Assembly: GCA_024137785.1 (NCBI GenBank)
Contig: JAHRHZ010000222.1
Span: forward strand, 36,952,277-37,016,276
Direction: 5' to 3'
Source: Ginglymostoma cirratum
Taxonomy: Eukaryota
Length of the DNA stretch: 64,000 bases
The position numbers were made by a program, and so were the translations under genes. The notes under the pieces are model-generated. The model searched no databases and was not told where the DNA came from. It worked only from the letters and a program-made list of their open reading frames with translations. This document shows positions 8,342 to 61,209 of the stretch, piece by piece (the first letter of the stretch is position 1; every line of letters starts with the position of its first letter).

Positions 8342-8528
8342 CATGATGTGGAGGTACCGGTGTTGGACTGGAATGGACAATGTCAAAAATCATACAACAC
8401 CAGATTACTGTCCAGCAGGTTTATTTGAAATCACCAGCTTTCGGAGCCCCTGAAGAGACAACGCTCTGAAAGCTGGTGATTTCAAATAAATCTGTTGGAC
8501 TATAACCTGGTGTCATGTGACTTTTGAC
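8342..8528. mobile_element. Penelope-derived short inverted-repeat element (MER6-like) with decayed hammerhead core
   Basis: Imperfect ~65 bp inverted arms (about 8381-8447 and 8463-8529); centre ctgaagagacaacgctctgaaagct; possible TSD cattccaaa (8333-8341) / cataccaaa (8529-8537). Confidence 0.7.
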
Positions 8529-14424: not shown

Positions 14425-15000
14425 GAATGATTTATGTGTTGTCACGTATACCTTGAAGATAATGAAAAGTATTTTGTTGCCACAATCCGGCGCCATTTTG
14501 AGTTACAATAAGGATAAAAAGAAATTACTTCAATAAGAGAGCAAACTAACATTTCAAGTTTAAATAATTCTTCATCAGATCTCCATCATTTGTTGTTTTC
14601 AGTACAGATTCCAGCATATGCAGTAATTTGTTCTTGCTTAAATAAGAGCTCACCTTCTAATCAAATTTGGTCTCAAGCACAACTTCAGAGCTTCTGCAGA
14701 ATGTTTCAGTCCTCAAGGAGTCTCGGTCCGGGAACAGCGACGATGATGCTGCTGCCGCAAGGAGACCCCAGCTCTGCTGCTGCTACTGCCTCGCTAACAC
14801 CAAGAGTCCGGTCTCCGGGCACCACAACCACTGCCTGGTCCATGTTGCAGCTACCGCCCCAGCCTCGAAGATGAAGAAGAAAGGGAGAAGAAAAGAAAAA
14901 AAAACAAAATTTTCTTTGGAGAAAATGATGCCACTGGCCTGGAGTGAACAGACTCCAACAATCCCGGACACTACCTACTTTACCAGAATAATTTGCATAA
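14425..15000. repeat. Unclassified interspersed repeat with embedded Penelope-derived tail (~14575-14640)
   Basis: GC/CpG-richer block (ccggcgccattttg, gctgctgccgc); tgttttcagtacagattccagcatatgcagtaatttg matches 28200-28240. Confidence 0.4.
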
Positions 15001-21960: not shown

Positions 21961-22730
21961 GAAGTATTTGTTCAATGATTCTGCCAGTTCCTTATTCTCC
22001 ATCATTATTTCACCCATTTCTGTCATAAATGGTCCCGTATTTACTTTCACTAAACTCTTCCTATCTAGATCCTATAGAAATGTGAAAACAATGTATTTGC
22101 AAATACCTTTGCTCCACTACCCCATTTATATTCTTATTTTCTAAATATGAAGAAACCTACTTACTTTTCTTACCAACCTTCCAATGATTTGCATTGAAAT
22201 TCAAGAACCAGTGCTATGCCATTCTGCAACTTATTGCATTTTAATTGAAGAACCTCTGGATCAGCAGTTCATGTGCCTGCATTTAAACAGAAGGCCATGC
22301 TGTAATAACCTTTAGTTCTGAAACTGAGATCAGAAGTCACATTACATTGTCCGATGGCAGCTTCATTTCAGGCTAGGGAGAACATGTGGCAGCACCGGGA
22401 CAAAAATGGTACAAAGCAAAGAACATAAAAAAATCAGAAATGAAACAAAACACCATCAACACAACAACAACAACATCAGTTCACCACAACTGCACCTATT
22501 CCTTTTGGTGAGTCTGTCGCAATGCCAGATGCTAGGTATATATTGACATGACTAAGAGTCAGCATTAACAAGTAAAACCAGGGTATACCACAGACCACAA
22601 GACCATAAAAAATAGGCAGAGGAGTAGGCTGAGATAAGAGGTACTGCAGATCCTGGAGAATCCGAGATAACAAGGCGTGGGGCTGGATGAACACAGCAGG
22701 CCAAGCAGCATCATAGGAGCAGGAAAACTT

Positions 22731-22758
22731 GACGTTTCGGGCCTAGACCCTTCATCAG
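22731..22758 (-). ncRNA. Minimal type I hammerhead ribozyme-like core
   Basis: CUGAUGA-A-GGGU(CUAG)GCCC-GAAA-CGUC; stem I only about 3 bp; activity untested. Confidence 0.6.
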
Positions 22759-22788
22759 AAATTCATCAGAAATCAGCCATTTCTGATG

Positions 22789-23188
22789 NNNNNNNNNNNN
22801 NNNNNNNNNNNNNNNNNNNNNNNNNNNNNNNNNNNNNNNNNNNNNNNNNNNNNNNNNNNNNNNNNNNNNNNNNNNNNNNNNNNNNNNNNNNNNNNNNNNN
22901 NNNNNNNNNNNNNNNNNNNNNNNNNNNNNNNNNNNNNNNNNNNNNNNNNNNNNNNNNNNNNNNNNNNNNNNNNNNNNNNNNNNNNNNNNNNNNNNNNNNN
23001 NNNNNNNNNNNNNNNNNNNNNNNNNNNNNNNNNNNNNNNNNNNNNNNNNNNNNNNNNNNNNNNNNNNNNNNNNNNNNNNNNNNNNNNNNNNNNNNNNNNN
23101 NNNNNNNNNNNNNNNNNNNNNNNNNNNNNNNNNNNNNNNNNNNNNNNNNNNNNNNNNNNNNNNNNNNNNNNNNNNNNNNNNNNNNNNN
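22789..23188. other. Assembly gap (400 N)
   Basis: Run of N. Confidence 1.
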
Positions 23189-23218
23189 CATCAGAAATGG
23201 CTGATTTCTGATGAATTT

Positions 23219-23246
23219 CTGATGAAGGGTCTAGGCCCGAAACGTC
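23219..23246 (+). ncRNA. Minimal type I hammerhead ribozyme-like core
   Basis: ctgatga a gggtctaggccc gaaa cgtc; predicted cleavage after C23246 (GUC). Confidence 0.6.
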
Positions 23247-23979
23247 AAGTTTTCCTGCTCCTATGATGCTGCTTGGCCTGCTGTGTTCATCCAGCCCCAC
23301 GCCTTGTTATCTGAGAGGAGTAGGCTGTTTGGCTCCTCAAGCCTGCTTCACCATTCAATAGGATCATGGCTGATCTGACATCCCTCATGTCCTCTTTCCT
23401 ACGTTTTCTGCATAAACCTCGATTCCCCCACTAATCAAGAATCCATTTATCTGAGACTTAGATGTCAACAAGGACTCTGCCTCGACAACTTTCTGTGACA
23501 GAAAGACTTGTAACCTTCTGAGAAAAGAAATTCCTCCTCATCTTAGTTTTAAATTGGTCACCCTTTATCCGAGACTATGCCCTCTGGTCCTAAACTCTCC
23601 CATGAGTGGAAACATCCTTTCAGCATTTACCCCGTCAAGGTTCTTATGAACCCTTTATATTTCAATGAAATCATTTCTCATTCTTGTTATAAATTGATAT
23701 CCTTATCCAGTATGGCCTAAATGTAATTCTAAACTAGTAATAAAGACTACATCCTTCTAACTACTGAAAGCATCATGTTAAAGATAGAGCTCAGTGATCC
23801 CACAACTGACCGACACACGTTATTTCAATTATGCAAGATTAAGGCAAAATACCAACTGGTTAAACAGAGACAAGTCTGGCTGTGTTATTCAGACTAATTA
23901 TTACAGTGCCCCTGTTTCAATTGATGTCCCAAAGATTTTATTTCATGAATTCCTCTTTTGCGAATGTATGGACAAGGCT

Positions 23980-24194
23980 GTGGGACTGGAGGAACACCGC
24001 AGGTCAGGCACCATCAAAGGAGCAAGAAAGTTGACATTTTGGGTCATGACCCTTTTTCAGAGCCTTTCTCTGAAGAAGGGTCCCAACCCGAAACGTCAAC
24101 TTCCCTGCTCCTTTGATGCTGCCTGACCTGCTGTGTTCCTCCAGTTCCACACTATGTTATCTCCGACTCCAGCATCTGCAGTTTTTGGTATCTC
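23980..24194. mobile_element. Gap-free Penelope-derived inverted-repeat element (~215 bp)
   Basis: Arms about 23980-24062 and 24068-24152; TSD tatggacaaggct (23967-23979) / tatggccaaggct (24195-24207). Confidence 0.85.
24070..24097 (+). ncRNA. Hammerhead-like core
   Basis: ctgaaga a gggtcccaaccc gaaa cgtc; stem II GGGU/ACCC is kept with a different loop; the minus-strand partner (24033-24060) is mutated. Confidence 0.55.
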
Positions 24195-26544
24195 TATGGC
24201 CAAGGCTAGTATTTACTGTACATTCCTTATTTGACGTTGACCTAATCAGTTAGTTGAGGGATCACTGATCTCTATCTTTAGCATGATGCCTTCAGTAGTT
24301 AGAAACATGTCGTCCCTTGTTGTAGCTGCAGGTCAGGAATCACATCTAGATCTTATTGCATAAGGATATCAATTAACTAAGTGGGGCATTATGATAATCT
24401 AGCAGTTGCAAAGTCAACATCACTGAAACCAGCTTCTTTTTATCCTAGATTTATATTTTGAATTAAATCTAAATTCTGGTGAAAATTGAGCCCTGACTCA
24501 GAATACTTTGTGTAAGCCTCTGACATACTAATTCGGTCATGTAACCATTCAGTTAGCATAGCCTATGATCACTAATAACCGAAATATGTTATGTCAGCCA
24601 ACAAATGTATGAAAATGCGTGAGAGGATACAATTTGATGATGTCACTTTGTTTACACAATATCCTCACATTGCTCCTCTGAGCAATCAGTAAAGCTGCTG
24701 AACGACACGTCCTGATTTGAGTCATCCTGTATACTTCAAACCGGAGGGCCAGTACAACCAACACATTCATTTTCCAGCGGTATTGAAATATTACTGTTTT
24801 CTCCTCCGAGTTGTCTAAATAATGTACTTTACTGCAATTTCTCTTTATATAAGCAATCAAGTTTTGCACAATCTATGTACAATTAACAATTAAAATGTTA
24901 AAACACTTATTGAAACGTAGGCATCACTGATTTGTCTACTTTGCTACAACCTTAATGTAGTTGTTTTTCCTGCTATCATTGCCAATTTTGTTTATGGCTG
25001 TCCAATGCAAATGCCAATCCCTCAGTTCATCTAACTAAACTCTGGGCTCCATTTTCTAATGTTATCAGCTGATAAAATGTGTATAGAACTGGAATGAGCC
25101 AAACTACTGGAATATCTTCCTTGCGGAAATATTTATCCAATAGCTTGGCTGAAAACCTTAATGGAACCAAAGTTCAGTACCACGAAGTGGCGTGCCAGGC
25201 AACAAAAGCATGCCTTGATCCTGTGACCACAGAGGTGTGAGACGAGCACCACTAAAGCAGCAGCATAATTTATAATAGGAGACAAGACAATTACTGTATC
25301 TCATAACTATGTGCATTTTAATACTTGTCTATGAATCTTATTAAAGCCAGTATCTAGTAAATGAGCTTGATAATCAATGTTATATTGAATAATAGACCAA
25401 ACAACAATTAAACGACTTCAAAATCCAATATCCTAATCATAGCAAATATCTGGTCTGTGCACTACTGTTGACAAGTTGAGCTTATATTGCTATAGACAGC
25501 TTGGGGCTGCTTGGTGCACAGTAGCTTCAGAACGCTCCAGTTATGACAGTATCAATACAAGAGGGACCAGAAAGAAGGTCAAGTTTGAGACAAATGAAGA
25601 TAAAGTGAAACCTTTAAGCAACCATCAAAGAAACTGAGCTATGTCAGACAAGCAGTCACTCAAAACAAACACGGTGAAAAATCTCTGCAATAGATAACAA
25701 ATATTGTGTCAAGTTCTTATTTTCATTCCCATATGACCTACAATCTGATGAGATTAATATTCAGCTTTTTCTGAAAGGGAAATCCTAAGTGCCCTTTTTG
25801 TTATGTTCCCAGCCCAGATGGGAGGGAAATAGGGTTGATTTATTCTGCATTCTCATTTGAGTTATATATTTCACACATATCTCAGATAATTCTATTGAAC
25901 ACATGCTGCATACGGCACTCAAGTGAATATCAGTGCAGCAGGAGAAAGGCAGTGGTACTGGCTGCCTGTTTAGAGCCCAGAGCATACGTTTGGTTTAAAA
26001 TTTATGCTGGTTCACTCTGAAAGCTGTCTGACACTCATTTATTTTGTGATCAGATTTAATTTTTATTTTATTGCAGTGATAACAGACAGCATATGGGCAA
26101 AGAGGAAGATGAATTTACCACAGAGCTGCTCTCTGCGAGTGCTGTTTAGACAAGCGGCCAAAGACTAGCTGAACCAAAGTTTCACCCCATTGGCAGAGAA
26201 CAGTTTTTTGTCCAGTTATACCATTCCGGTCTCATAATCAAAGTGCGCAGGGTTCAAACTTCACTGCAGGCTGGGTCCCTGGCCTTGTATACTGTGATCC
26301 TGTTAAACACAGCCCATTCCCACCTGCTCTACCCAACTGCCTATCACTAATCTTGTTGATTGAGAAAGCCCAGAAACAAGACTAAGAACCTTGTGTAAAT
26401 GATTCACACTGTGATCTGCTACAACACTAATTTAGCTGCTGTTCTCCAAAAGAAGTATGTGACTGGACACAAGCAAAACTTTATTGACTTGACAGGAGTG
26501 CTTTTTGATGGGCAGAAATAACTTTTGAATAAGTTTTTAACTAT

Positions 26545-26878
26545 GAAATCACAGAATTCCTACAGTGCACAAGAGGCCATTCAGCCCATTGAATCCATGC
26601 CTATCCTCTGATGATCATCCCAAACAGACTTCCCCTGTTATCCTATCCCCATGACCCAGCATTGATCATGGATAACTCCCCTATCTCTCACATCCCTGAA
26701 CACTATGGACAATTTAGCATGGCCAAACCACTTAAAACTGCACATCTTTGAGGGAACCCATGTAGACATGAGGAGAATGTGCAAACTTCGCACAAACAGT
26801 CACTCAAAGCTAGAATCAAACCCAGGTCCCTGGCTCTGTGTGGAAGCAGTGCTAACTATTAAGCCACCATATCACCCA
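26545..26878 (-). mobile_element. Older HE1-type V-SINE
   Basis: Aligns by eye along its length with 36940-37268, with an internal deletion. Confidence 0.85.
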
Positions 26879-27140
26879 ATGATGTCCAAGATCAGCAAAC
26901 CAGATTCTTTTTTGTTTCAGATTACATGCTATACATTAATACAAGGGGTGGAACCCCTTCACCCTCTTTTCCCCTTATTTTCTCCTTTCATAACTAACCC
27001 ACTCTCATCCTTCAGCTCCACAACTTCTGCAGGTCACTGTAAAAGTAAAAGCAGTGCAGGGTCCCCAACATGGTTTTCCATTCTTCAGTCCTGACAGATG
27101 CTCAATGCCTCTTCACACAACATAATTGCAATGGGAAACA

Positions 27141-28110
27141 GGGTTGAATTTCGGGGAGTTTAATGGAATGTTTCTCTTTGTGAATTTGGTTAAATTATCT
27201 ATCTCAGATCTGTATTGTTCACATAATTATGAATGCATCATGTCCTTCTGCCACTGTGCTCATGCTATCATGTGCCCACCAGCAGCAAAATGCTTGCCAG
27301 TCCTGAGACCTCCCAGTGTACACACAGCAGATACCACAGTTAAATCCTACCTGTGCCTTGTGCCAAATGCTACCTGTTTGTCTGAAGTAGGAACCTGGAT
27401 TGGTGTAGTGTTCAGAGTTTGGAGAAACGTGTGGCAATGCTGCAAGAAAATTAATGACCTACTGTGCTCTGTAAGGATTAGTGGCAGCATCATCTTTCCG
27501 CTACCTCACAATTACTCTAACTCCGCTAATGCAACTGGCTTGCATCATGTTCATTGTCTATGCAACATCTTCCCTCAAAGCCTGTCAACCACCCCATTCT
27601 CCCTAAGTACCTACCCTTCCTACCGTCTTGTGCTTCCCACATACTCATTTGAATCATCTCACTACTTTTCCGGATAGATGAAAGGCCAACACACTGACTG
27701 ACCTTAGTCCCCAGTAATTCATTGCTGTCAAACATGGCACATTTCCTGGCTATCTTTACATACGAAGGTAAGGCAAGCCAAAGTAAGAAATGTTATGAAG
27801 ATCTAAGTAGGCACAAACTGAGTGAGTGGTAAGAAAGCAACCTAAGAGCTGTGAGATGAATGCTCTACCAATGACATGAGATGGGTACCTCTCCCTATAT
27901 GCAAAGTGGCTTGGCAGCAGCCTTGCAATGCAAGGTATCAGTGAGCAAAGTGCATTATTGAAATGTTGAACTATATCAGTGAGGGTCCCAAATGTGGTCT
28001 GATAATGTTGTGAGGTTGATTGGTATTTGCCAATACCATTGTCTCTCCATTGTCTGGTAAAATGGCAAACTGTATGTACATGAGGTGAGAATAAGCCATA
28101 ATGAGATGTT
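27141..28110 (+). mobile_element. Harbinger-derived fragment with Myb/SANT-like remnant
   Basis: Starts gggttgaatttc (TIR-like); translates SEVGTWIGVVFRVWRNVWQCCKKINDLLCSVR (Myb/SANT helix R...QC.KK.NDL). Confidence 0.6.
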
Positions 28111-28129
28111 AATACATGCAAATAGAATT

Positions 28130-28245
28130 ACCTAGACTCCAAATGTTAGCTTGCTTGCTTTCCATGGATACTGCCTTACCTGCAGTGATTTCCAGCATTT
28201 TTTGTTTTCAGTACAGATTCCGGTGTCTGCAGTAATTTGCACCAA
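28130..28245 (+). mobile_element. Penelope-derived tail fragment
   Basis: gactccaaatgttagc...ctgccttacctgcagtgatttccagcatttttgttttcagtacagattcc; shared with 14575-14640. Confidence 0.5.
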
Positions 28246-37268: not shown

Positions 37269-37541
37269 AATGTATTTTCAATAATTTGTAATTTGTAATT
37301 TCCAATGTTATGTAAATGTATTTTCACAAATTTCAATTGTAATCCAACTGACCCAACTTCAAGCTGAACATCCTGATAATATTCAAAGCAGAAAATGTAT
37401 CCTATTACTTCAAGTCTAATGAGATAGCAGGAACTGCAGATGCTGGAGAATCTGAAATAACAAGGTGCAGAGCTGGATGCACACAGCAGGCCAAGCAGCA
37501 TCAGAGGAGCAGGAAGGCTGATGTTTCAGGCCTAGACCCTG

Positions 37542-37941
37542 NNNNNNNNNNNNNNNNNNNNNNNNNNNNNNNNNNNNNNNNNNNNNNNNNNNNNNNNNNN
37601 NNNNNNNNNNNNNNNNNNNNNNNNNNNNNNNNNNNNNNNNNNNNNNNNNNNNNNNNNNNNNNNNNNNNNNNNNNNNNNNNNNNNNNNNNNNNNNNNNNNN
37701 NNNNNNNNNNNNNNNNNNNNNNNNNNNNNNNNNNNNNNNNNNNNNNNNNNNNNNNNNNNNNNNNNNNNNNNNNNNNNNNNNNNNNNNNNNNNNNNNNNNN
37801 NNNNNNNNNNNNNNNNNNNNNNNNNNNNNNNNNNNNNNNNNNNNNNNNNNNNNNNNNNNNNNNNNNNNNNNNNNNNNNNNNNNNNNNNNNNNNNNNNNNN
37901 NNNNNNNNNNNNNNNNNNNNNNNNNNNNNNNNNNNNNNNNN
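37542..37941. other. Assembly gap (400 N)
   Basis: Run of N. Confidence 1.
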
Positions 37942-39338
37942 GTTTATGTTGAATGCACTGTGTGACCGCATTTGAAGCGTGCTGCATTATGCAATATCTG
38001 ACACTTGATCACTTATTGCAATGATGCCTCGATCTTATTGTTATCAGCCTCAATCCCTGCACTGATTTTTTTTAACTTTACTGCTGTAAGCCACCAGGTG
38101 TCCTGGTTGAATTGTTGAATCCTTTTTTTGTCCTTGCTCATCTTCTGACACGTTGAATAGTGCTGCTTTGGCATGTGCACAAGTGAGAATGAGTGTTGAA
38201 GTACCTGAGTGAGTTTCCATTGAATAATTTTCATTTAAAAAACATTCATCTTGTAAAGTGGTTTGCTATGCAGCATTTTATAAAATCAAGTTCGAGGTTT
38301 GTTTCCTTTAGTGCTGAAATTGTTTGTTTAAGAGTAAAAGTGTCATGGGGTCACGACTAAGTGTCAGGTAATGCTTTGTCATGTCCTGGCTCAGCTTTCT
38401 TTTGTGGCTGAGGTTTGCATGCTGAATTTGGATAAGGTATGATCGTAGAGCCTTAGTTTAGAAAATGTGGGAAGCCAGTCTCCCAGGTATTCAGCTGTCT
38501 TATCGATAAGTTTTGTTGTTTGACATGGTTTGATCTAAGTTAGGCTGTGTAAACCATAACAGGATAATTGAAAGTAATATCTTGACTCATTTTTGCTCTG
38601 TTCATGTTTAAAAAGCATTGAGCTTCTCCGCAAGATTTGTGTGTTCTGGATTTTGTCTGCTGTATTTATTCCTTTTTTATAAGCACACAATTTCTATTAA
38701 CATTTGCAAGAATTTATTTATCAGGTATTTCTCCATTTCCATGTAACAGTTTTTATAATCTGGATTAGTTTTTTGAATATTTTGGAGCTACAGTAATTTT
38801 TTAAATGTGTATTCCTTGGATTTTTAGGGTTTGATAAGATTGCTTGCGCATATTTAGATAACACTGTTGAAGATCCTGCAGGCAAAAGTAAAAAGTGTAA
38901 AATAATTGTGTAGTTTATATTTTTCTCACTCCTCCAGGTACTATGACTGTGCAACTAAGTGCACTTGCTTCCATTTTGCCTCTTTCTCTCTAATTATTTA
39001 ATCAGAAACCTATGGGTTTCCAGAAAAGAAAATATTACATTGAGTACCGTGGACTTAACGCAGCAACTATTAGCCACTCAGGCCACACTGATGTAAACCT
39101 GTAGAACCTGATTTGCCTGGGACCTGTAAAAAGGAGCAGTTTATGACCAGTGCAGTTTTCCAGTAAACAAGTCATGAGAGTTGACTTTTGAGAAGACAGC
39201 CCAGAAATTTGAGATATTATTTCAATAGTTAAAATAATTGTTGCTGAAATACATTATCACTCTGAAAGATGACTGAGAATTTGGTGTAACATGAAACCAC
39301 AGAAATGACAATTGGAAACCAATTTCTGAAGACCCTTT

Positions 39339-39366
39339 CTGAAGAAGGGTCTAGGCCCGAAACGTC
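39339..39366 (+). ncRNA. Hammerhead-like core
   Basis: ctgaaga a gggtctaggccc gaaa cgtc. Confidence 0.55.
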
Positions 39367-42300
39367 AGCCTTCCTGCTCCTCTGATGCTGCTTGGCCTGC
39401 TCTGTTCATCCACTTCAAGTCTACTATTCTGATTCAAAATTATTCTTCCATGTAACTCAGAGGAGCAAATTTTATGCCAACTGTCAGGTAGTTATATCTT
39501 CTAAATTAAATGAAATAAAATGATTTTCTACACCAGAATATTGTCTGAAGTTAGAGTTCTGAATTGGTGCCTGGATAAAATGATTGATAGGTAAATGGAG
39601 TTAGGTAAGCTGTTTCATTACAACTTGATTCAAGTAGCATGAATTGACCATGATACATTTGTTTAATGGGCAGGGTACATGAAGGAAGCTTTAGATCTAT
39701 CTGAGCTGTTGGGGATCAACTATTTCCTAGTTTATTGTTTCCTGCCTCATTCCTTATTGATTTTATTTCAGTTGGTCACTGGTCATTAGTTTGAACTATA
39801 TGTTGGTTTAATTAAATGTAGGTTGGCAGAGCATGCAAAAAATAATTTCAAGATTTGCTGTGCAAACCATTGTAGTTAACTTTTTAAATTGCTTCTCAAC
39901 AAATACATCCTTTATTCTGATACTATCTTTTATGATCAGAAATATACATATACTTTAATTAAGGATGAAAAATCACATCCATATAATGCATTTCTGTTTC
40001 AGTCTCTATACTTGTTCCAGTCAAAACACACAATATTTCCTTCCAAATCCCTTGGCTTCTTTTTAAATAAATTCTACAAAACTATTAGGTCAAAACATAA
40101 AGTATCTAAACAGATGGCACAAAGCCTTTCTTCTGATGTCAAAAAGTTCCTCAGAGAAAACCCTTCCAGGCTACTGAAAGCTTGGCACATTTTTTTTAAG
40201 TTTCAAAAAATACAGCAGCAATTGAGTTGTGAAAATGTTCTTAGGCTCTTTTTAATGTCACAGTCTGTTGTTGGAGATTATGTTGAATTATTCAGGGTTA
40301 AATCAAACACATTTCTGCAGATGGAAAATTGGCACACGCACAGCATCATGCTGCAGAAAGCTTAACAAAGCCTCGAGCCGCTACAGCTGTTTTACTTTGT
40401 TTCAGAGAAATCCAAGGCGTGCTATAGGAAATACATAATAGAGCAAACAAAAACTCTTCAACAGAGAAATTAAATGAGGAATAATCCATCAATTCTAACC
40501 AGTGCTTCACAAGTACAAATTCAGTATTTACCCTATAAACCAGTCCTTAATGTCTAACCAATCAGCTGGATCCATACACATAACAGTTAATATCTAAAAT
40601 GTTGATGAAATGTTTTCCAGTCAATTCGCATGACAAAAAGCAATCACAATGATAAACACACCTCGGGCCACATTTAACTTACTTTGATATTATCAGAGGG
40701 CAGAAGAGCGTATGGTGGGGTGATGCATTTTGCATAGTGCTTTTAACTGACGGGGCATTGAAGCTCAAATCCACATCTAATGGATGAAAACAGTTCTTTA
40801 TGATTCTTTATTCTGGATCATATTGTAGAACAGAACTCTTGTGGAAAGCTCCATCTTGATGAGCAACATTTCCCCATTGGAGGAGGACTCAAAGTTAGAT
40901 ATTCAGTCTTCTATACATCACATTCAATTTGCAAAGAAAACCAAAAGAATTAATCCCAGATAATCTCATGAGAATGCGCTAACAGGATTTATACTGTTTA
41001 AGATAATTTTGGGGACAGCCAGTGCAATTGCACATATCAGATTAAGTAAGACTAATCTCATTCCACAGAATAGTCCTTTTTGGAAGACTAGGAGAGTACT
41101 TTACAGACCTTAGACTATCTCACAAAATGATCTACCTAATTGAGAATGAGATAGACTCAGTCCTGTCAAGGAGTGGGAACAATTCTGCAAAGGGAAGATA
41201 AATCATCAATTAATCCTCATCCAATGAGGCCAGCTCTTAGAGAAGTCCGCAAGAAAATTAATGTTGCACATTAGATCATATTGGGAGTATGGCATAAGGA
41301 AGCTTTTAGAATAGCAGCAATGTCACTTACATCACCATTTATCAGAACTTTCCCACTGCCAGTACTCATCAAATTTGTGAGATTCATTTGGTATTTCATT
41401 TCTTATTCCAACACCAATCAGATTCACATAGGCTCCAATTTATTTGAAAACTTGAAAAGATTCAAGAGAAATTGTTCCATTTAGGTTGGAAAACAAGCAC
41501 GATTTTGTGTTTTTTAAAATATTTTATATATTTTTTAAAATGTTTCAGAATATTTTGATTTTCTTCTCACCTATGGGTTCAACTGGCCTGTTTCATATCT
41601 GTGAAAGATTAATTTCAATTAATAATGCTATAGAGTTAATCTTTTTATGATTATACAAAAATCTTTATTTTCATTTTCTATTGATATAATTTACAAATTT
41701 TGTTCTCTTCTTTTCAATTTTTTGCTTTTATGATTTTGTTAAAATATTTCTATTTCTTATCAACCAAATGTGAATGGCGTAGTTATTCACTGAAGGGGAA
41801 GCAATGTTGAGGGAAGAATAATTCATTCTTTTAAATGGGATGTAATAACAAAACTTAGACTCAATGTTAATATTTTTATAAACATTATTGTCTTGGAAGT
41901 TCGAGGGGGCTTGAGTGAAGTCTCCCTCTTACGAGGCCACTCAGTGAAGTCAGTTACACCAAGTCATCCCATGATCCCAGAATGAATGACTGAGTGACCC
42001 CATTGCAAATGGTAACCTGCATTCCCAGAATACTTCTCCAGCATCAGATGTTTTTGATCACCCATTAGCTGGAATGAAATCTTGGTCCCAAGTTTGAAGT
42101 GAAACCACTTTGGCACCAGTAAACCAGCCAAAAAGGGAGAAAATTGAATCTTAAAGCTTCACATGTCAGTAGGAAACTTGACATCTTCAAAACAAAATTG
42201 TAAAATACATTTCAGTTTCAGTTCATCAAATTTTCTTAAAGGAAGAGAGCACTTAGAAAAACGTAATTGTGCACATCCATACTTTCATTTTTTATTTTAA

Positions 42301-47289: not shown

Positions 47290-47575
47290 AGAGACAGAGT
47301 TATACGTCTCTATACGTCCATCCAAGTCTGGTCCACAATGACCAGGCATCCCAATCTGACCTAGTCCCATTTGCCAACATTTGGCCGTGCAACCCTCTAA
47401 TCCCTTTATATTCATATACACATCCAGACTGGCCGTGCTAAATTGCCCATAGTGCTCAGGGATGTGTAGATTAGGTGGGTTATAGGGGGATGGGTCTGGG
47501 TGGGATGCTCTGAGGGTCAGTGTGGCCCCATGTTGGGCCGAAGGACCTGTTTCCTCACTGTAGGTGTTCTATGTT
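47290..47575. mobile_element. CR1/HER 3' end (minus, ~47290-47425) fused to an HE1 SINE 3' half (plus, ~47428-47575)
   Basis: ccaatctgacctagtcccatttgccaacatttggcc, then ggccgtgctaaattgcccatagtg...gggccgaaggacctgtttcctcactgtagg. Confidence 0.8.
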
Positions 47576-56040: not shown

Positions 56041-56838
56041 TCCTGTTATTGCCTATAACTGTACTGAAATACTTTCACTTTTTGTAATAGACCATGCTGC
56101 TGAACTAAAATTTATATCTGATGGCCTTATAAGATGTATTAAGGCTGAGCAAATTTTCCCTAAATCTCAACCTTAATGCATGCAGGACATTCGACCATTC
56201 AAAAAAAAAGGAGTCAGTTGTCGTCTTGTCTCCAATTGGATGATGGTCACTCATTACCAAAAGAAGTTCTGGATTTCTTCCAAAAAACAATGGATATGTG
56301 TACACTCTAAACATTTACAGTGAGTTATTTGTACGAGTTATCTGCCATATCATGGCAGGTACTAATTTGTAACTTGAATCATTTTATGGATCATCTCATT
56401 TACCTCTGTTTTCTTTTGCATGTTTGATTGTTAAAGAGACTTTCTGCTGCCATGTTTATTACTGTGAGGTTCATATTTTCACATATATCCATAAATTAAT
56501 AATTGGCACATTTCAACCAACCGTCAGTGAGGAACTTAGCTGGCATTCCAAGTCTGGTCCCTAACCATGATCTTGTCTACGATTACGCCTTTTCATTTAC
56601 TATTTATTATTGTAGACTGGCTGAATTCCCTGATTAGGCATCATACTCATGTTTGGCTCAAAAAAAATCTAGTTACCACGTCTATAAAGCACAAAAAGAT
56701 TTTTTTTCTCTCTCAAGAGCCCATACTTTCAAGTCTATTGCCATAGATTCATTAAAGTCTCTAGCCAATAGAAGACTCTATATGGGTCATGGTGGTGAGG
56801 TTGTTGATTTGCTCGCCGAGCTGGCTTGTTTCTGTTCA

Positions 56839-56872
56839 GACATTCCGTCACCACGCTAGGTGACATCACCAG
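56839..56872 (-). ncRNA. Mutated hammerhead core in the Penelope 3' pLTR
   Basis: CUGGUGA-U-GUCACC(UAGCGU)GGUGAC-GGAA-UGUC: perfect 6 bp stem II, three substitutions from CUGAUGA/GAAACGUC. Confidence 0.55.
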
Positions 56873-59212
56873 TGGAGCCTCCGATAAAGCGATGCTATTC
56901 TATTCCGTTTGGAATTTATACTGTCTGGTCCATTATGGTGAGTACTGTCATTTCCGGTTTTGATCTGTATGGGTTTCTGTATATATGGCGTCCAATTCTA
57001 TATGTTTGTTGATTGAAGTATGGGTGGAGAACCATGCCTCTAGGAATTCCCGTGTGTGTCTATGTTTGACTTGGGCTACTATGGTTACTTTGTCCCAGTT
57101 AAACTGATGGCCTTTGTTGTTTGAATGTACAGATATTAAGGAGAGTTCATCGTGCCGTTTTGTTGTGAGCTGATGTTCGTGTATTCTGATGGCTAGTTTC
57201 CTTCCTGTCTGTCCAATGTAATGTTTGTGGCAGTCTTTACATGGTACTTTGTAAACCACGTTCGTTCTGCATGTTGTGGGAATGGAGTCTGGGCTTATGG
57301 GTGGCCCATAAGCCCACTTAGGAGTCTTGTTGTCAGTTCTGATATGTTCTTGATGTAGGGAAGTGTGGTAAGTGTGTCAAGGCATACTGTGTCCTCCTGT
57401 TGTTATTTGTTGTGTAGGCATCTGTGGATGAAGTTGTGGGAATATGCATTCCAGGCGAGGATTTTGTATAAGTGTTCTTCCTCTTCCTGGCGTAATTCTG
57501 GAGTGTTGCAGTGCGCCCTGGCCCGTTTAAATATTGTCCTAATGCAGCTTTGTTTGAGGACGTTGGGGTGGTTACTGTGGAAGCTGAGGATCTGATCAAT
57601 GTGGGTAGCTTTTCCGTACACTGAGGTTTGGAACTCCCTGTTTGTCAATCACTCTATTGTCCAGAAACAGAAGTTGATTGTTGGTTTCTTCTTCGTCTGT
57701 GAATTTAATCCCTGTGAATACGCTGTTGATGAGGTGGTGGGTCTCTTTTAATTTGTTGCGTTTAATAATGACAAATGTGTTGTCTATGTACCGGATCCAC
57801 AGTTTAGGTTGAATGTGGGGGAGGGTGGTGTGTTCGAGTCTTTGCATGACTGCTTCTGCGATGAGTACTGAGATGGGTGACCCCATTGCTGTACCGTTGA
57901 TCTGTTTGTATATTTGACCATTAAAAACAAAGTGTGTGGTGAGGCTGAGGTCTAGTACTTTAAGTATGTTGTCCTGGCTGATGGAGTTACTGGTCTGTGC
58001 TGCTGTTTCCTCTAGTAATGTGGCCACTGTTTTCTTTGGCTAGTGGGATATCAATTGATGTGAATAAAGCTGTGACATCAAAGGATACCATAATCTCGTC
58101 GTCGCTGATTTTTTTATGTTCTTAAGGGTATCGAGGAAATCTTGGGTTGAGTGGATAGAATGAGGTGATCTGTCTACTAGGTGTTTCAATCTCTGCTGTA
58201 GGTCCTTGGCCAGTTTGTGTGAAGGTGTGCCCAGTAGGGAGACAATAGGTCTGAGAGGGATGTCTGGTTTATGTACTTTAGACAGTCCTGAGAAGCAGGG
58301 GTGTTTGTGTCTTCTAGTTTCATTCTCATGAAGTCTGTCTTGGTTACCTGCCCTGCATTCATTAGTCGCTTCAGTGTCTGGATGATCCTATTACCGCGTT
58401 GCGGTGCTGGGTCCATTGCCACCTCTTGGTAAGTGGTTGTACCTGCAAGCAAAGTCTGTGCTTTCTTAACGTAGTCTGGTTTGTTCATAATGACGGTCAT
58501 GCGCCCTTTTTCGGCTGGTAGGATTATGATGTTCTTGTCTTACCTGAGTCTGTCTAGTGCTTTTCTCTCTGCTGTGTTCAGGTTGTCCCCTTTGTTCCTT
58601 TTGTGTAGCGTGGGGATTATAGTTTGTTGTGTTTCGTCCGTGAGTTTGTTGTCTTTTAATGTATTCTCTAGAACGGCCATGAAGTCTGCTCTGTTCGCAA
58701 TATTGTGATTATAGTTCAGTCCGAGTAATAGGACAGCTTTCTCAGTTTCTGTGAGCTGTCTGTTAGATAGGTTTCTTTATCCATGTGTCTGGTTTGTTGT
58801 TGTCCTTGTTTTTGTTGTGGATCAGTTTGGTGAGTTTCTCCTGTAGCTCGTGTCTCTTCTTAGTTTTGGTTTTATGTTGATTGACGGTGATGGCCTGTTC
58901 TAGGGTTGTAGACCATTGCTGGTTCATTGAGTTTAGGTACTTGGATTTTTGGCGTGCAATTTCTCGTCACTACCTGTGGAGTTGGTTATGGGCATCATTA
59001 ATCACTGCTCATAGTATTCTGTATCCGTTCTGCTCAGCTGTTTTATATGCCTGTGGGATGTTGACTGGAGGTTTATATTTCACACTGTGGGCAGTACTTG
59101 GTTCCTGAGGCATTCGTGGAGGAAGTGAAGTTATTCGAGGATAGAGCCCAGTCGGTTGGCAAAGTTTTCCCATTGTCTGGCAATTTTTGGGGTGTTATGC
59201 TCATAGTTGTCT

Positions 59213-59367
59213 AAAGTATTGGCAAAGATCTGTAGCTTGGGTTCTGGATGAGGTTGTTGACTTGCTCGTCGAGCCGGCTCGTTTTTGTTCAGATGTAACA
59301 AGCCAGCTCGACGAGCAAGTCAACAGCCTCATCCACAATCTGAGTTACAGATCTTTGCCAAAACTTT
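59213..59367. repeat. Imperfect hairpin at the Penelope 5' end (inverted pLTR)
   Basis: ttggcaaagatctgtagc...gctcgtcgagc pairs with gctcgacgagc...tacagatctttgccaa. Confidence 0.85.
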
Positions 59368-61209
59368 TCAGGATCATGAGGGAATCCTCCTAATTGTTTC
59401 TTTACATATATCACATTTATTACTGTAAGCTGAGTGCCCTAATCATCACTTACTCCTGTACCTTTTACTTAGACTTTTAATATGTGATAGGAAGAATAGG
59501 CAAACTACCAAAATGGTTTTGAGATATTTAGCCTTTGTTCATTTAAATCCATATTTCCGAGTTCCAGTGCCACCTGTACAATATTTTGATTTGAGAAATT
59601 AGGTCTGTTAATGGAATATAATTATGTCCGGATTGTGTTGAACTGTAAATTCACTGACTTCCCAAAAAACAATTACCTTTTCATGTTCTATTATCAAGTT
59701 CATTTGAGCATATTTTTTCATAGTTGGCCTACTTAACAGTAAGGGTATTTCACTTGTCACAGCATCTGTGATAGTAAAATAGTTTTTCCCACCTATTTTA
59801 CAAGGAATCACTGCTCTTTTGAATGAATTTAGCATGTGATCATCCCCAAATCTGGAACCAATGCAGCTAGTAAATTCCTTAACGTTATTTTAGGTGCTTA
59901 CCATCTGAAGAGTCTGGTTTTAACCAATCTGGTCCACACATCATGGACATGCATCCATTGTCCAAAACTATGCAATTGAACAAGTCCCCAACTAAAAAGT
60001 TAATTACTAATCCCAGGTTCCTTGTTGTGTTGACAACTCCCTCTGCCTAATCAGTATGACTATCTACTCTTTCCAAACCATCTGTATCATGTGTAATTTC
60101 AAAACTCTTATTGTACAATCTAGGACAATGGTACTTCTGGTCATGTATAAAACACCCTGTTTACCAGTCCCTTGGACATTCCCAGGGTTCATTCTTCTGT
60201 CGTGGTTCCCTGGTTCCTGCGTCTGTTACAATTTCCAAACGTATCCTCTACCCTTACTCCATCTAGTTAAGATTATTCTTTTGTACAGATGCTTGTGACC
60301 TATGTCTGGACAGTCTTACCTTTCTGCTGCTATTGAATCCTCCCTTCTTTCTGGCCTGCTGCATGTCCCATTTGAGCCGTGAAAACCACTGGGAATGAAA
60401 GTTATCCCCAAATTTCTTATTGAGATTTTGAACATCTGTTCCAACAATGTGTTTCCATCTGAAAATCTGTCTCTAGTAAACACTACAGTCAATCCAAGTA
60501 CAACAATTTAAAACAGCCCAACAATTTAAAGGCAAGCACCAAGTCAGGAACCTCTATATATTCACGATTGGAAAAATTTAATTCAATTCCATTTTACGAT
60601 CTTCTATAGAGTAACCTGCTGGCTTTCCGAATTTATCAAAGTCTGACCAAGTTTCATATGTATTTAATGGATTTTTTTTGTATGTTTTGTCCATATACAT
60701 TAACTAACTTACAGTAATCTTCCTCAGAGCATAATTTTCAAAGCTCCATCTCTGAGATTACAATACACCTGAACCTGTTTCTTGTAGGAAGTGGAAGTGT
60801 CAAAGCTACACCTTATTTCTTTTACTTGAGCAAGGAGACTATCCCTATCCATAACTCTAATTAATTTTTCCATTCATCGTAAACTTTACTTTTACAGCAC
60901 CACAGTGAGGAATGATATCACGACACTTTGCACCTGGTTTCAGCCATTCTTTTAAAAAGGAACTCAAATATGCAATTTTCCAACAGAGAAAAAAAGTCCA
61001 ATTTTCATCTTCAGACACCTATCCTTACTTACCAATGGTAAGTTGGATCTCAGCCAGCTGGTGAATTAGAACTTTCGTCAATTGACTCTATCACAAAAAG
61101 AAAACTTGTCTGAACAGCCACACAGCTCATACAACACCCTCAGACAATAACTTAAATAATTAATACCAGCCAGCAACTTAACTTTTACTATCCTTATATT
61201 AGAGACCAA

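Follow-up and report, generated by a model that had tools for sequence, protein, structure and literature searches.

Head-to-head leader copies of a Penelope-like retrotransposon in Ginglymostoma cirratum and their possible origin by priming on both DNA strands

Endonuclease-positive (EN+) Penelope-like elements (PLEs) with a Neptune-type linker contain a single ORF, in which the RT is followed by a C-terminal GIY-YIG domain and which carries a DKG motif and a CX2-5CxxC linker, together with a pLTR. Their copies are described as 5' truncated, with a truncated copy inverted head to head, a 30-40 bp tail at one end only, and a TSD, and their palindromes break assemblies (PMC8557442, PMC3846280). 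How the inverted ends and the one-sided tails arise is treated as an unsettled question in the PMC papers cited here. Metazoan PLEs can also carry minimal hammerheads, mostly as single dispersed copies. These have a type I core with an extra base between positions 9 and 10.1, a G10.1-C11.1 pair, and a palindrome at 15.2-16.2 without a loop 3 (PMC4209133). According to the same source, such hammerheads show no cleavage as monomers and low cleavage as dimers, and opposite-strand pairs 100-700 bp apart are already known from Schistosoma.

In vitro data come from the protein of Poseidon from the anole, Anolis carolinensis, a PLE of another clade. This protein cuts and extends both strands and is predicted to form a dimer; RT starts at two internal sites, which define the tail, and no difference in start site was seen between strands (PMC11167929). 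The Poseidon leader has a hammerhead near the ORF start whose cleavage site leaves no mark in the products; some minimal hammerheads depend on the element's protein, and hammerhead cleavage is not needed by Poseidon (PMC11167929). A further relative is the non-LTR retrozyme, a small, non-coding, PLE-related element with a type I hammerhead (PMC7229834; bioRxiv 10.64898/2026.07.22.740005). The elements described below share the properties listed for EN+ PLEs and, with metazoan minimal hammerheads, the features of the core and the palindrome, the mostly single, dispersed occurrence and the opposite-strand pairs; with Poseidon they share two internal RT starts, putative here, and the unmarked leader hammerhead, and with retrozymes their small size, lack of coding sequence, hammerhead type and PLE kinship.

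Three fold-back elements and the element behind them

The window, i.e. the whole stretch of 64,000 nt that was analysed (G000:C222:36952277-37016276 of a 4.36 Gb genome), contains three elements built of inverted arms. Positions within an arm are numbered with C3 of the hammerhead as 0, so that +28 is the first base past the cleavage site. Element 1 (22632-23313) lies between two copies of a 14-bp TSD, AGAGGAGTAGGCTG (22618-22631 and 23314-23327). Its tailed arm, on the minus strand at 22632-22762, covers leader positions -4 to +128, and its tailless arm, on the plus strand at 23215-23313, covers -4 to +94. Element 2 (23980-24194) is flanked by a 13-bp TSD with one mismatch, TATGG(A/C)CAAGGCT (23967-23979 and 24195-24207), and consists of a tailless minus-strand arm (23980-24061, -1 to +82) and a tailed plus-strand arm (24069-24194, -1 to +125). 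It is nested in an older inverted repeat at 23692-24374, whose arms of about 120 nt are 78-87% alike and which has one weak further match in the genome. Element 3 (37419-39411) has a 12-bp TSD, ACTTCAAGTCTA (37407-37418 and 39412-39423), and its tailed minus-strand arm (37419-37541, +7 to +128) is cut by a 400-N gap. The inverted arms of elements 1 and 2, and TSDs of 12-14 bp that differ in sequence among all three elements, are thus as originally predicted. In all three, the arms are unequal: a tail of about 33 nt is present on one arm only.

Two of the elements are affected by the assembly. Element 1 contains a gap of 400 N at the hairpin apex (22789-23188), and the 124 nt on its two sides are exact reverse complements of each other. 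Since the contig ends on both sides already cross the apex loop, in opposite orientations, element 1 is probably about 255 bp long rather than 682, and the gap is probably a placeholder. Ten of the 11 gaps of 400 N in the genome sample described below lie within 500 nt of the end of an arm or body. Four DNA contig sets compared with 22300-24600 cover the repeats and hardly touch the unique flanks; among them are joints at the -3/-4 point between arms placed head to head, which derive from other loci. In element 3, the plus-strand sequence 37942-39379 has no differences over 1,438 nt from a second locus (G000:C267:4595069 onward), where the counterpart has no gap and leads into an arm of that locus. 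The two sequences first differ at 39380, from which the locus-specific remainder of the tailless arm of element 3 extends to +75 (39380-39411, plus strand). Capture of host DNA at insertion was considered and rejected, because the two arms of this element differ by about 6% (94% complementary) while the 1,438 nt are identical. From this comparison of loci, the most economical and a probable reading of the interior is a mis-join at the arm that both loci have in common, although a very recent conversion could also have produced the identity. The predicted TSDs and gap-cut left arm of element 3 stand, but the hammerhead at 39339-39366 most likely belongs to the other locus. Leader palindromes break and mis-join this assembly, and the lengths and contents of such elements need to be checked against long reads.

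The genome was searched with an RT-thumb/GIY-YIG protein (137,650 first-look candidates, 150 of them scored). In longer copies, the arm is preceded by a frame for an RT thumb and GIY-YIG and by a 3' UTR rich in pyrimidines. In one copy the frame is open for 811 codons, matches RVT_1 (E 1.8e-8), and contains a DKG motif and, between RT and EN, the linker CNRRKCYTC (CX4CX2C), which falls within the Neptune-clade pattern CX2-5CxxC as given in PMC8557442. Its GIY-YIG match (E 2.8e-4, 21.6 bits) is just below the cut-off of 22.6 bits, and that of a second copy is above it. The first 58 or so codons of this frame are an inverted piece read in frame; a tailless arm lies behind the frame, an inverted tailed arm in front of it, and a 13-bp TSD around the whole. 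In 6 of the 25 loci with the front part of the ORF, the sense arm continues through the tail into the ORF, with an ATG at +166. Leader positions -4 to +128 recur behind the 3' UTR. Because the leader both runs into the ORF and repeats behind it, the arm corresponds to the 5' leader and pLTR of an autonomous element.

Other genomic copies accordingly have the arrangement of an EN+ PLE, namely a single ORF, joined to the repeat, for RT with GIY-YIG at its C-terminus (the window copies contain leader only), a pLTR before and after the ORF in partial tandems or inverted copies, and a tail of 30-40 bp on one end only. Judged by this continuity, and by the linker for its clade, the arms are the leader of an abundant autonomous Neptune-type PLE, and the hairpins are very probably by-products of that leader. 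The Penelope origin that had been proposed for the fold-back elements is therefore borne out.

The window also contains traces of other families. A second Penelope-like family is represented at 56796-58540 (minus strand) and 59200-59380 by an RT fragment (PF00078), a GIY-YIG-like frame (56948-57376), a decayed hammerhead (56872-56839, stem II of 6 bp), and a short fold-back of its own end at 59200-59380. A fold-back of a third family at 8382-8528 has arms of 66 nt that are 85% complementary and a decayed hammerhead-like motif ending in GAAAGCU, in which the palindrome AGCU replaces ACGU. Two short copies at 14578-14630 and 28187-28239 are similar to the end of the tail in yet another pLTR family, and two copies of a SINE-like repeat (26672-26881 and 47427-47573) are 78-88% alike. 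The minus-strand frame at 27756-28127 has a weak Pfam match to DncV_C (E 8.5e-5, 22.9 bits against a cut-off of 28.4) that is likely due to chance.

Hammerhead motifs in the arms

The predicted motif, CUGA(U/A)GA-A-GGGU-N4-(G/A)CCC-GAAACGUC, is present in the window with C17 at 23246, 22731 (minus strand), 24097 and 39366. It is intact in both arms of element 1 (22731-22758, minus strand, and 23219-23246, plus strand). In element 2 the core of the tailed arm is intact (24070-24097, stem I of 1 bp), and the left, tailless arm, on the minus strand, holds a dead version (24060-24033; G8A, G12A, C15.2U); the tailed arm of element 3 has a motif with CpG decay. The expectation that each complete arm would hold an intact or mutated motif was thus correct, with the qualification that one of them is dead. 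The sequence has the core CUGANGA / GAAA / UH, the extra base at 9/10, the G10.1-C11.1 pair and the palindromic 15.2-16.2 of minimal PLE hammerheads, and these features place it among the minimal hammerheads of type I, with ACGU as the palindrome, as had been suggested. Stem I, given earlier as 1-3 bp, is 1-2 bp in two subfamilies but 4 bp in the subfamily of element 1 and 6 bp in the two copies of that element; across genomic copies helix I is 3-4 bp in one subfamily and mostly 2 bp in the other two, compared with about 4-5 bp in minimal PLE hammerheads.

The genome sample comprised 155 stretches of 10 kb (1,055,664 readable bases, 1.06 Mb). Sampling was non-random: among the first 97 stretches, 47 consist entirely of N, and the 58 added later were chosen next to stretches that could be read. 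Within it the motif occurs 71 times, versus none in three shuffles, and is therefore more frequent than expected by chance. The original prediction had looked to hammerhead covariance models for a check, but the motif is missed by Rfam, whose models gave six matches at E<=10, none of them a hammerhead. A second check was covariation in stem II: the stem is kept across families, once through a two-sided change (GGGUC/GACCC to GGAUC/GAUCC). A third concerned an excess of core conservation across copies. The first sample held 53 arms, of which 5 window arms and 2 of distant families were omitted. Among the remaining 46, variants shared by a subfamily number none in the core versus 20 in the rest of the arm, and private core changes number 8 versus 9.7 expected. 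An apparent excess of conservation (1.8% versus 6.3%) disappeared once shared variants were removed and bases were matched. Judged from these substitution patterns, the core is selected in the source elements and decays neutrally in the copies after insertion. Mutations have hit the CpGs of the motif in 13-21% of copies, and the motif is intact in 55 of the 106 arms that span it; in the least decayed subfamily, 44 of 63 arms retain it.

The caveat that pairing between arms would compete with the ribozyme fold holds in the folding predictions. For element 2, the hairpin has a predicted energy of -139.5 kcal/mol, forcing the hammerhead costs 34.4 kcal/mol, and the predicted probability of stem II is 0, also for a transcript truncated shortly after C17; this competition would abolish the fold. 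In the leader of element 1 alone, stem II is predicted to form at less than 10%. The further suggestion that the elements cut host transcripts in either orientation finds no support: the hairpin is predicted to outcompete the fold, and among 34 TSD-flanked pairs (see below) an intact motif is missing from 20, present in one arm of 10, and present in both arms of 4. Young solo arms might still cut a host transcript, but nothing in the sequences points to it. A Pfam scan of 73 of the 90 window ORFs of at least 85 aa, in which short exons would escape, found no host exon, and thus no sign that the elements are intronic; it gave one RT match and one weak match.

Ends, pairs and the mode of insertion

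In the genome sample, 170 of 190 arms pass the filter (identity of at least 83%, length of at least 30 nt), a density of one arm per 6 kb of readable sequence. Scaled from a sample that favours readable regions, this would correspond very roughly to some hundreds of thousands of arms genome-wide. The 3' ends fall into two classes, around +94 and +128, with 71 of 167 at +86 to +101 and 72 of 167 at +120 or beyond, and 0-9 further element bases past the tail. A third apparent end at +77 is an artefact of an alignment break at a subfamily difference. The 5' ends (n=144) are divided among positions -8 to -1 (52), 0 to 95 (52), and -20 or further up (40); the first class is a pile-up, compared with 0.68 starts per nt elsewhere in the arm. 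Only one arm starts at the ribozyme cleavage site and five start within +28 to +30 (P 0.055), which argues against cleavage as the event that sets the cDNA end and agrees with the dispensability of cleavage in the anole system. A cluster at +28 to +34 in the first sample had suggested such a role and was not significant in the larger one.

Head-to-head combinations of arms within 4 kb number 66, and 34 of these have a TSD, versus none of 259 mismatched flank pairs used as a control. The 32 without a TSD at the threshold are mostly non-adjacent combinations, and among the few adjacent ones are cases of two tailless arms next to a gap or a break in the alignment. TSDs are 13-15 bp in 24 of the 34 pairs, with a peak at 14; they are 64% AT and free of repeats, and the insertion bias to microsatellites published for elements with a Neptune-type linker is absent from the TSDs of these pairs. 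Every one of the 34 pairs combines one tailed and one tailless arm, an outcome with an expectation of about 0.49^34 under random pairing. The pairs, 22 of them compact and 12 with UTR or ORF bodies, range from 93 bp to more than 3 kb, and the window hairpins are thus the short end of a continuum. In the 18 compact pairs that are gap-free, all 18 junctions are distinct; each hairpin was therefore made anew. Diagnostic subfamily sites agree between the arms of an insertion in 372 of 420 cases, versus 73% for random arms of the same family. The one clear exception is L217 (6441-7708), whose arms are of different subfamilies (7 of 17 diagnostic sites agree) around an internal gap, with a 9-bp TSD, and come either from two RNAs or from a false pair. 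Two further pairs are unusual in other ways. In L078 (4997-8110), which is TSD-flanked, 2.4 kb between UTR-bearing arms are unlike the reference body and represent either a later insertion or captured sequence. Both arms of L191 (5406-6089) start at -92 and enclose a palindromic piece of 281 nt with ends from the 5' region of the ORF, which suggests a template switch.

The full explanation that best accounts for these regularities, and that is judged likely, is that the hairpins are dead-end insertions of a leader that the RT-endonuclease copied two times, with one copy primed on each strand of a staggered cut. A TATA-like TATTTA in the 3' UTR would direct transcription to start 31 nt downstream, at the A of CCATTTC, and the RNA would begin 4 nt before the hammerhead. 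Among 44 body-bearing copies (4 further ones were unparsed), TATTTA lies exactly 31 nt upstream of the A at -4 in 39, representing all three subfamilies, and CCATTTC-like sequence surrounds that A in 40. By consensus and spacing, the former is TATA-like and the latter initiator-like. Together with the end positions, these motifs make an RNA start at -4 probable. Putative TATA and initiator sequences are reported for Adineta pLTRs (PMC3846280), whereas the promoter of D. virilis Penelope is described as internal and TATA-less (PMC2377424), unlike the start site proposed here. A protein dimer would then nick both strands about 14 nt apart, and cDNA would be primed by each 3' end, one at +128 and the other at +94. 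If these cDNA starts were used in the 5' leader copy, each cDNA would run off the RNA end or stop early, giving at most about 130 nt, and the two short cDNA ends would be joined head to head into a compact hairpin; their use in the downstream leader copy would give longer, ORF-bearing arms. Compact hairpins lack the TATA-like box and thus are not expected to be transcribed from a promoter of their own. Because the arms usually overlap in sequence, they would derive from one RNA copied twice or from two RNAs of one source. For the priming step itself, the pair data and the analogy to the anole protein tilt the balance somewhat toward use of both strands. The one-tail rule has no counterpart in the anole assay, in which no difference in RT start site was seen between the strands.

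The main rival to two-strand priming is the self-priming model of PMC3846280, proposed there for Adineta Penelope with an antisense template: one cDNA (or the antisense template) forms a fold-back from which the second arm is synthesized, and one end then loses its tail through endonuclease trimming, in keeping with PMC8557442, where the tail is ascribed to EN-mediated resolution. The shared subfamily alleles of arms within an insertion are as it would predict, as are microhomologies of 2-4 nt at five junctions and short templated palindromes at others. The reach of the arms in the 26 gap-free pairs (8 gapped ones were left out) bears on both models. The tailless arm extends further 5' in 13, by at least 8 nt in each, the tailed arm in 6, and 7 are ties. 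In the 13, each arm holds sequence absent from the other, so that neither can have been copied from its partner; the arms of L243 even abut without overlap (-7 to 94 and 95 to 125). A single folded cDNA would need further template switches to produce such arms. However, the 6 pairs with a longer tailed arm and the 7 ties also fit a snap-back. Self-priming is, on this evidence, doubtful as the general route. A different reading concerns the 5' pile-up, which could mark a structural stop or an endonuclease cut at ATT before the hammerhead, the remaining ends being ordinary 5' truncation plus inversion. The anole enzyme prefers 5'-ATT-3' at the ORF-pLTR junction (PMC11167929), and the pile-up lies on ATTT. 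Against it stand the constant distance of 31 nt from the TATA-like box, kept in three subfamilies, and the many copies that pass the point, including the 40 that start at -20 or beyond; this reading seems distinctly unlikely.

The original prediction had instead been of non-autonomous, retrozyme-like Penelope derivatives. Spelled out, these would form a separate family that is transcribed, has its RNA processed by hammerheads acting as dimers, multiplies as a hairpin unit, and cuts host RNA on both strands. The motif on both strands of element 1, the invariance of the core across subfamilies, the preserved stem II and the many intact arms of the least decayed subfamily are what such a unit would display. 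However, the arms are the leader of an autonomous element, no internal junction is shared among the 18 gap-free compact hairpins, and same-strand (head-to-tail) neighbours within 400 nt involve only 5 of 170 arms, 110-369 nt apart and none abutting. The neutral decay of the core and of its CpGs, the majority of pairs without an intact motif, the predicted loss of stem II in the hairpin, and the scarcity of arms starting at the cleavage site are equally at odds with it, and propagation as a unit is highly improbable. Movement of a MITE by a DNA transposase, for which the inverted arms and the peak of TSD length could speak, can be set aside almost with certainty, as had been anticipated: the arms are unequal by the tail in every pair, 102 of 170 arms lie outside TSD-flanked pairs, and the arms are continuous with an RT/GIY-YIG ORF in cis. 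Under two-strand priming, the leader hairpins would be a fossil record of an obligate process in PLEs, with a dimer, a stagger of about 14 nt, two internal starts, and a transcript begun at an upstream TATA/initiator; the chances of this broader statement appear evenly balanced. If true, one rule would explain the inverted pLTR, the one-sided tail and the strong-stop-like solo copies.

Relation to known systems

The published literature already describes minimal hammerheads of PLEs, opposite-strand pairs, inverted pLTRs and one-sided tails (PMC4209133, PMC3846280, PMC8557442). A literature search that left most subscription journals outside its scope found no paper on two-strand priming for PLEs or on this family, and none of the papers on Penelope-like elements and twin priming, as judged by title or the start of the abstract, dealt with PLE mechanism. 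On the ribozyme and mobile-element side the family is ordinary, each part being known from PLEs, and its value is mechanistic. It offers countable rules (one tail per pair, a stagger of about 14 bp, a fixed 5' point under a TATA-like box, and arms incapable of being copies of each other) that are testable in the existing in vitro system.

Non-LTR retrozymes form head-to-tail units of about 170-400 nt with canonical hammerheads and circular RNAs (PMC7229834; bioRxiv 10.64898/2026.07.22.740005), whereas the window elements are head-to-head pieces of a leader with minimal motifs and unique junctions. Compared with the hammerheads of PMC4209133, those described here have a helix II of only 4 bp and a helix I of 1-4 bp, and are recognized as sequence motifs. 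The ORF of the Poseidon element PAc starts at stem II (PMC11167929), and that of the present element at +166, beyond both 3' end sites. Finally, EN+ PLEs in Adineta have TSDs of 8-10 bp (PMC3846280/PMC8557442), versus mostly 13-15 bp here. Relative to the EN+ PLEs as described in these sources, the present family shows no targeting of microsatellites in its TSDs, has its TATA-like box upstream of the short arm and not inside it, and has left a great number of insertions that consist of the leader alone, for which there is a fixed 5' point.
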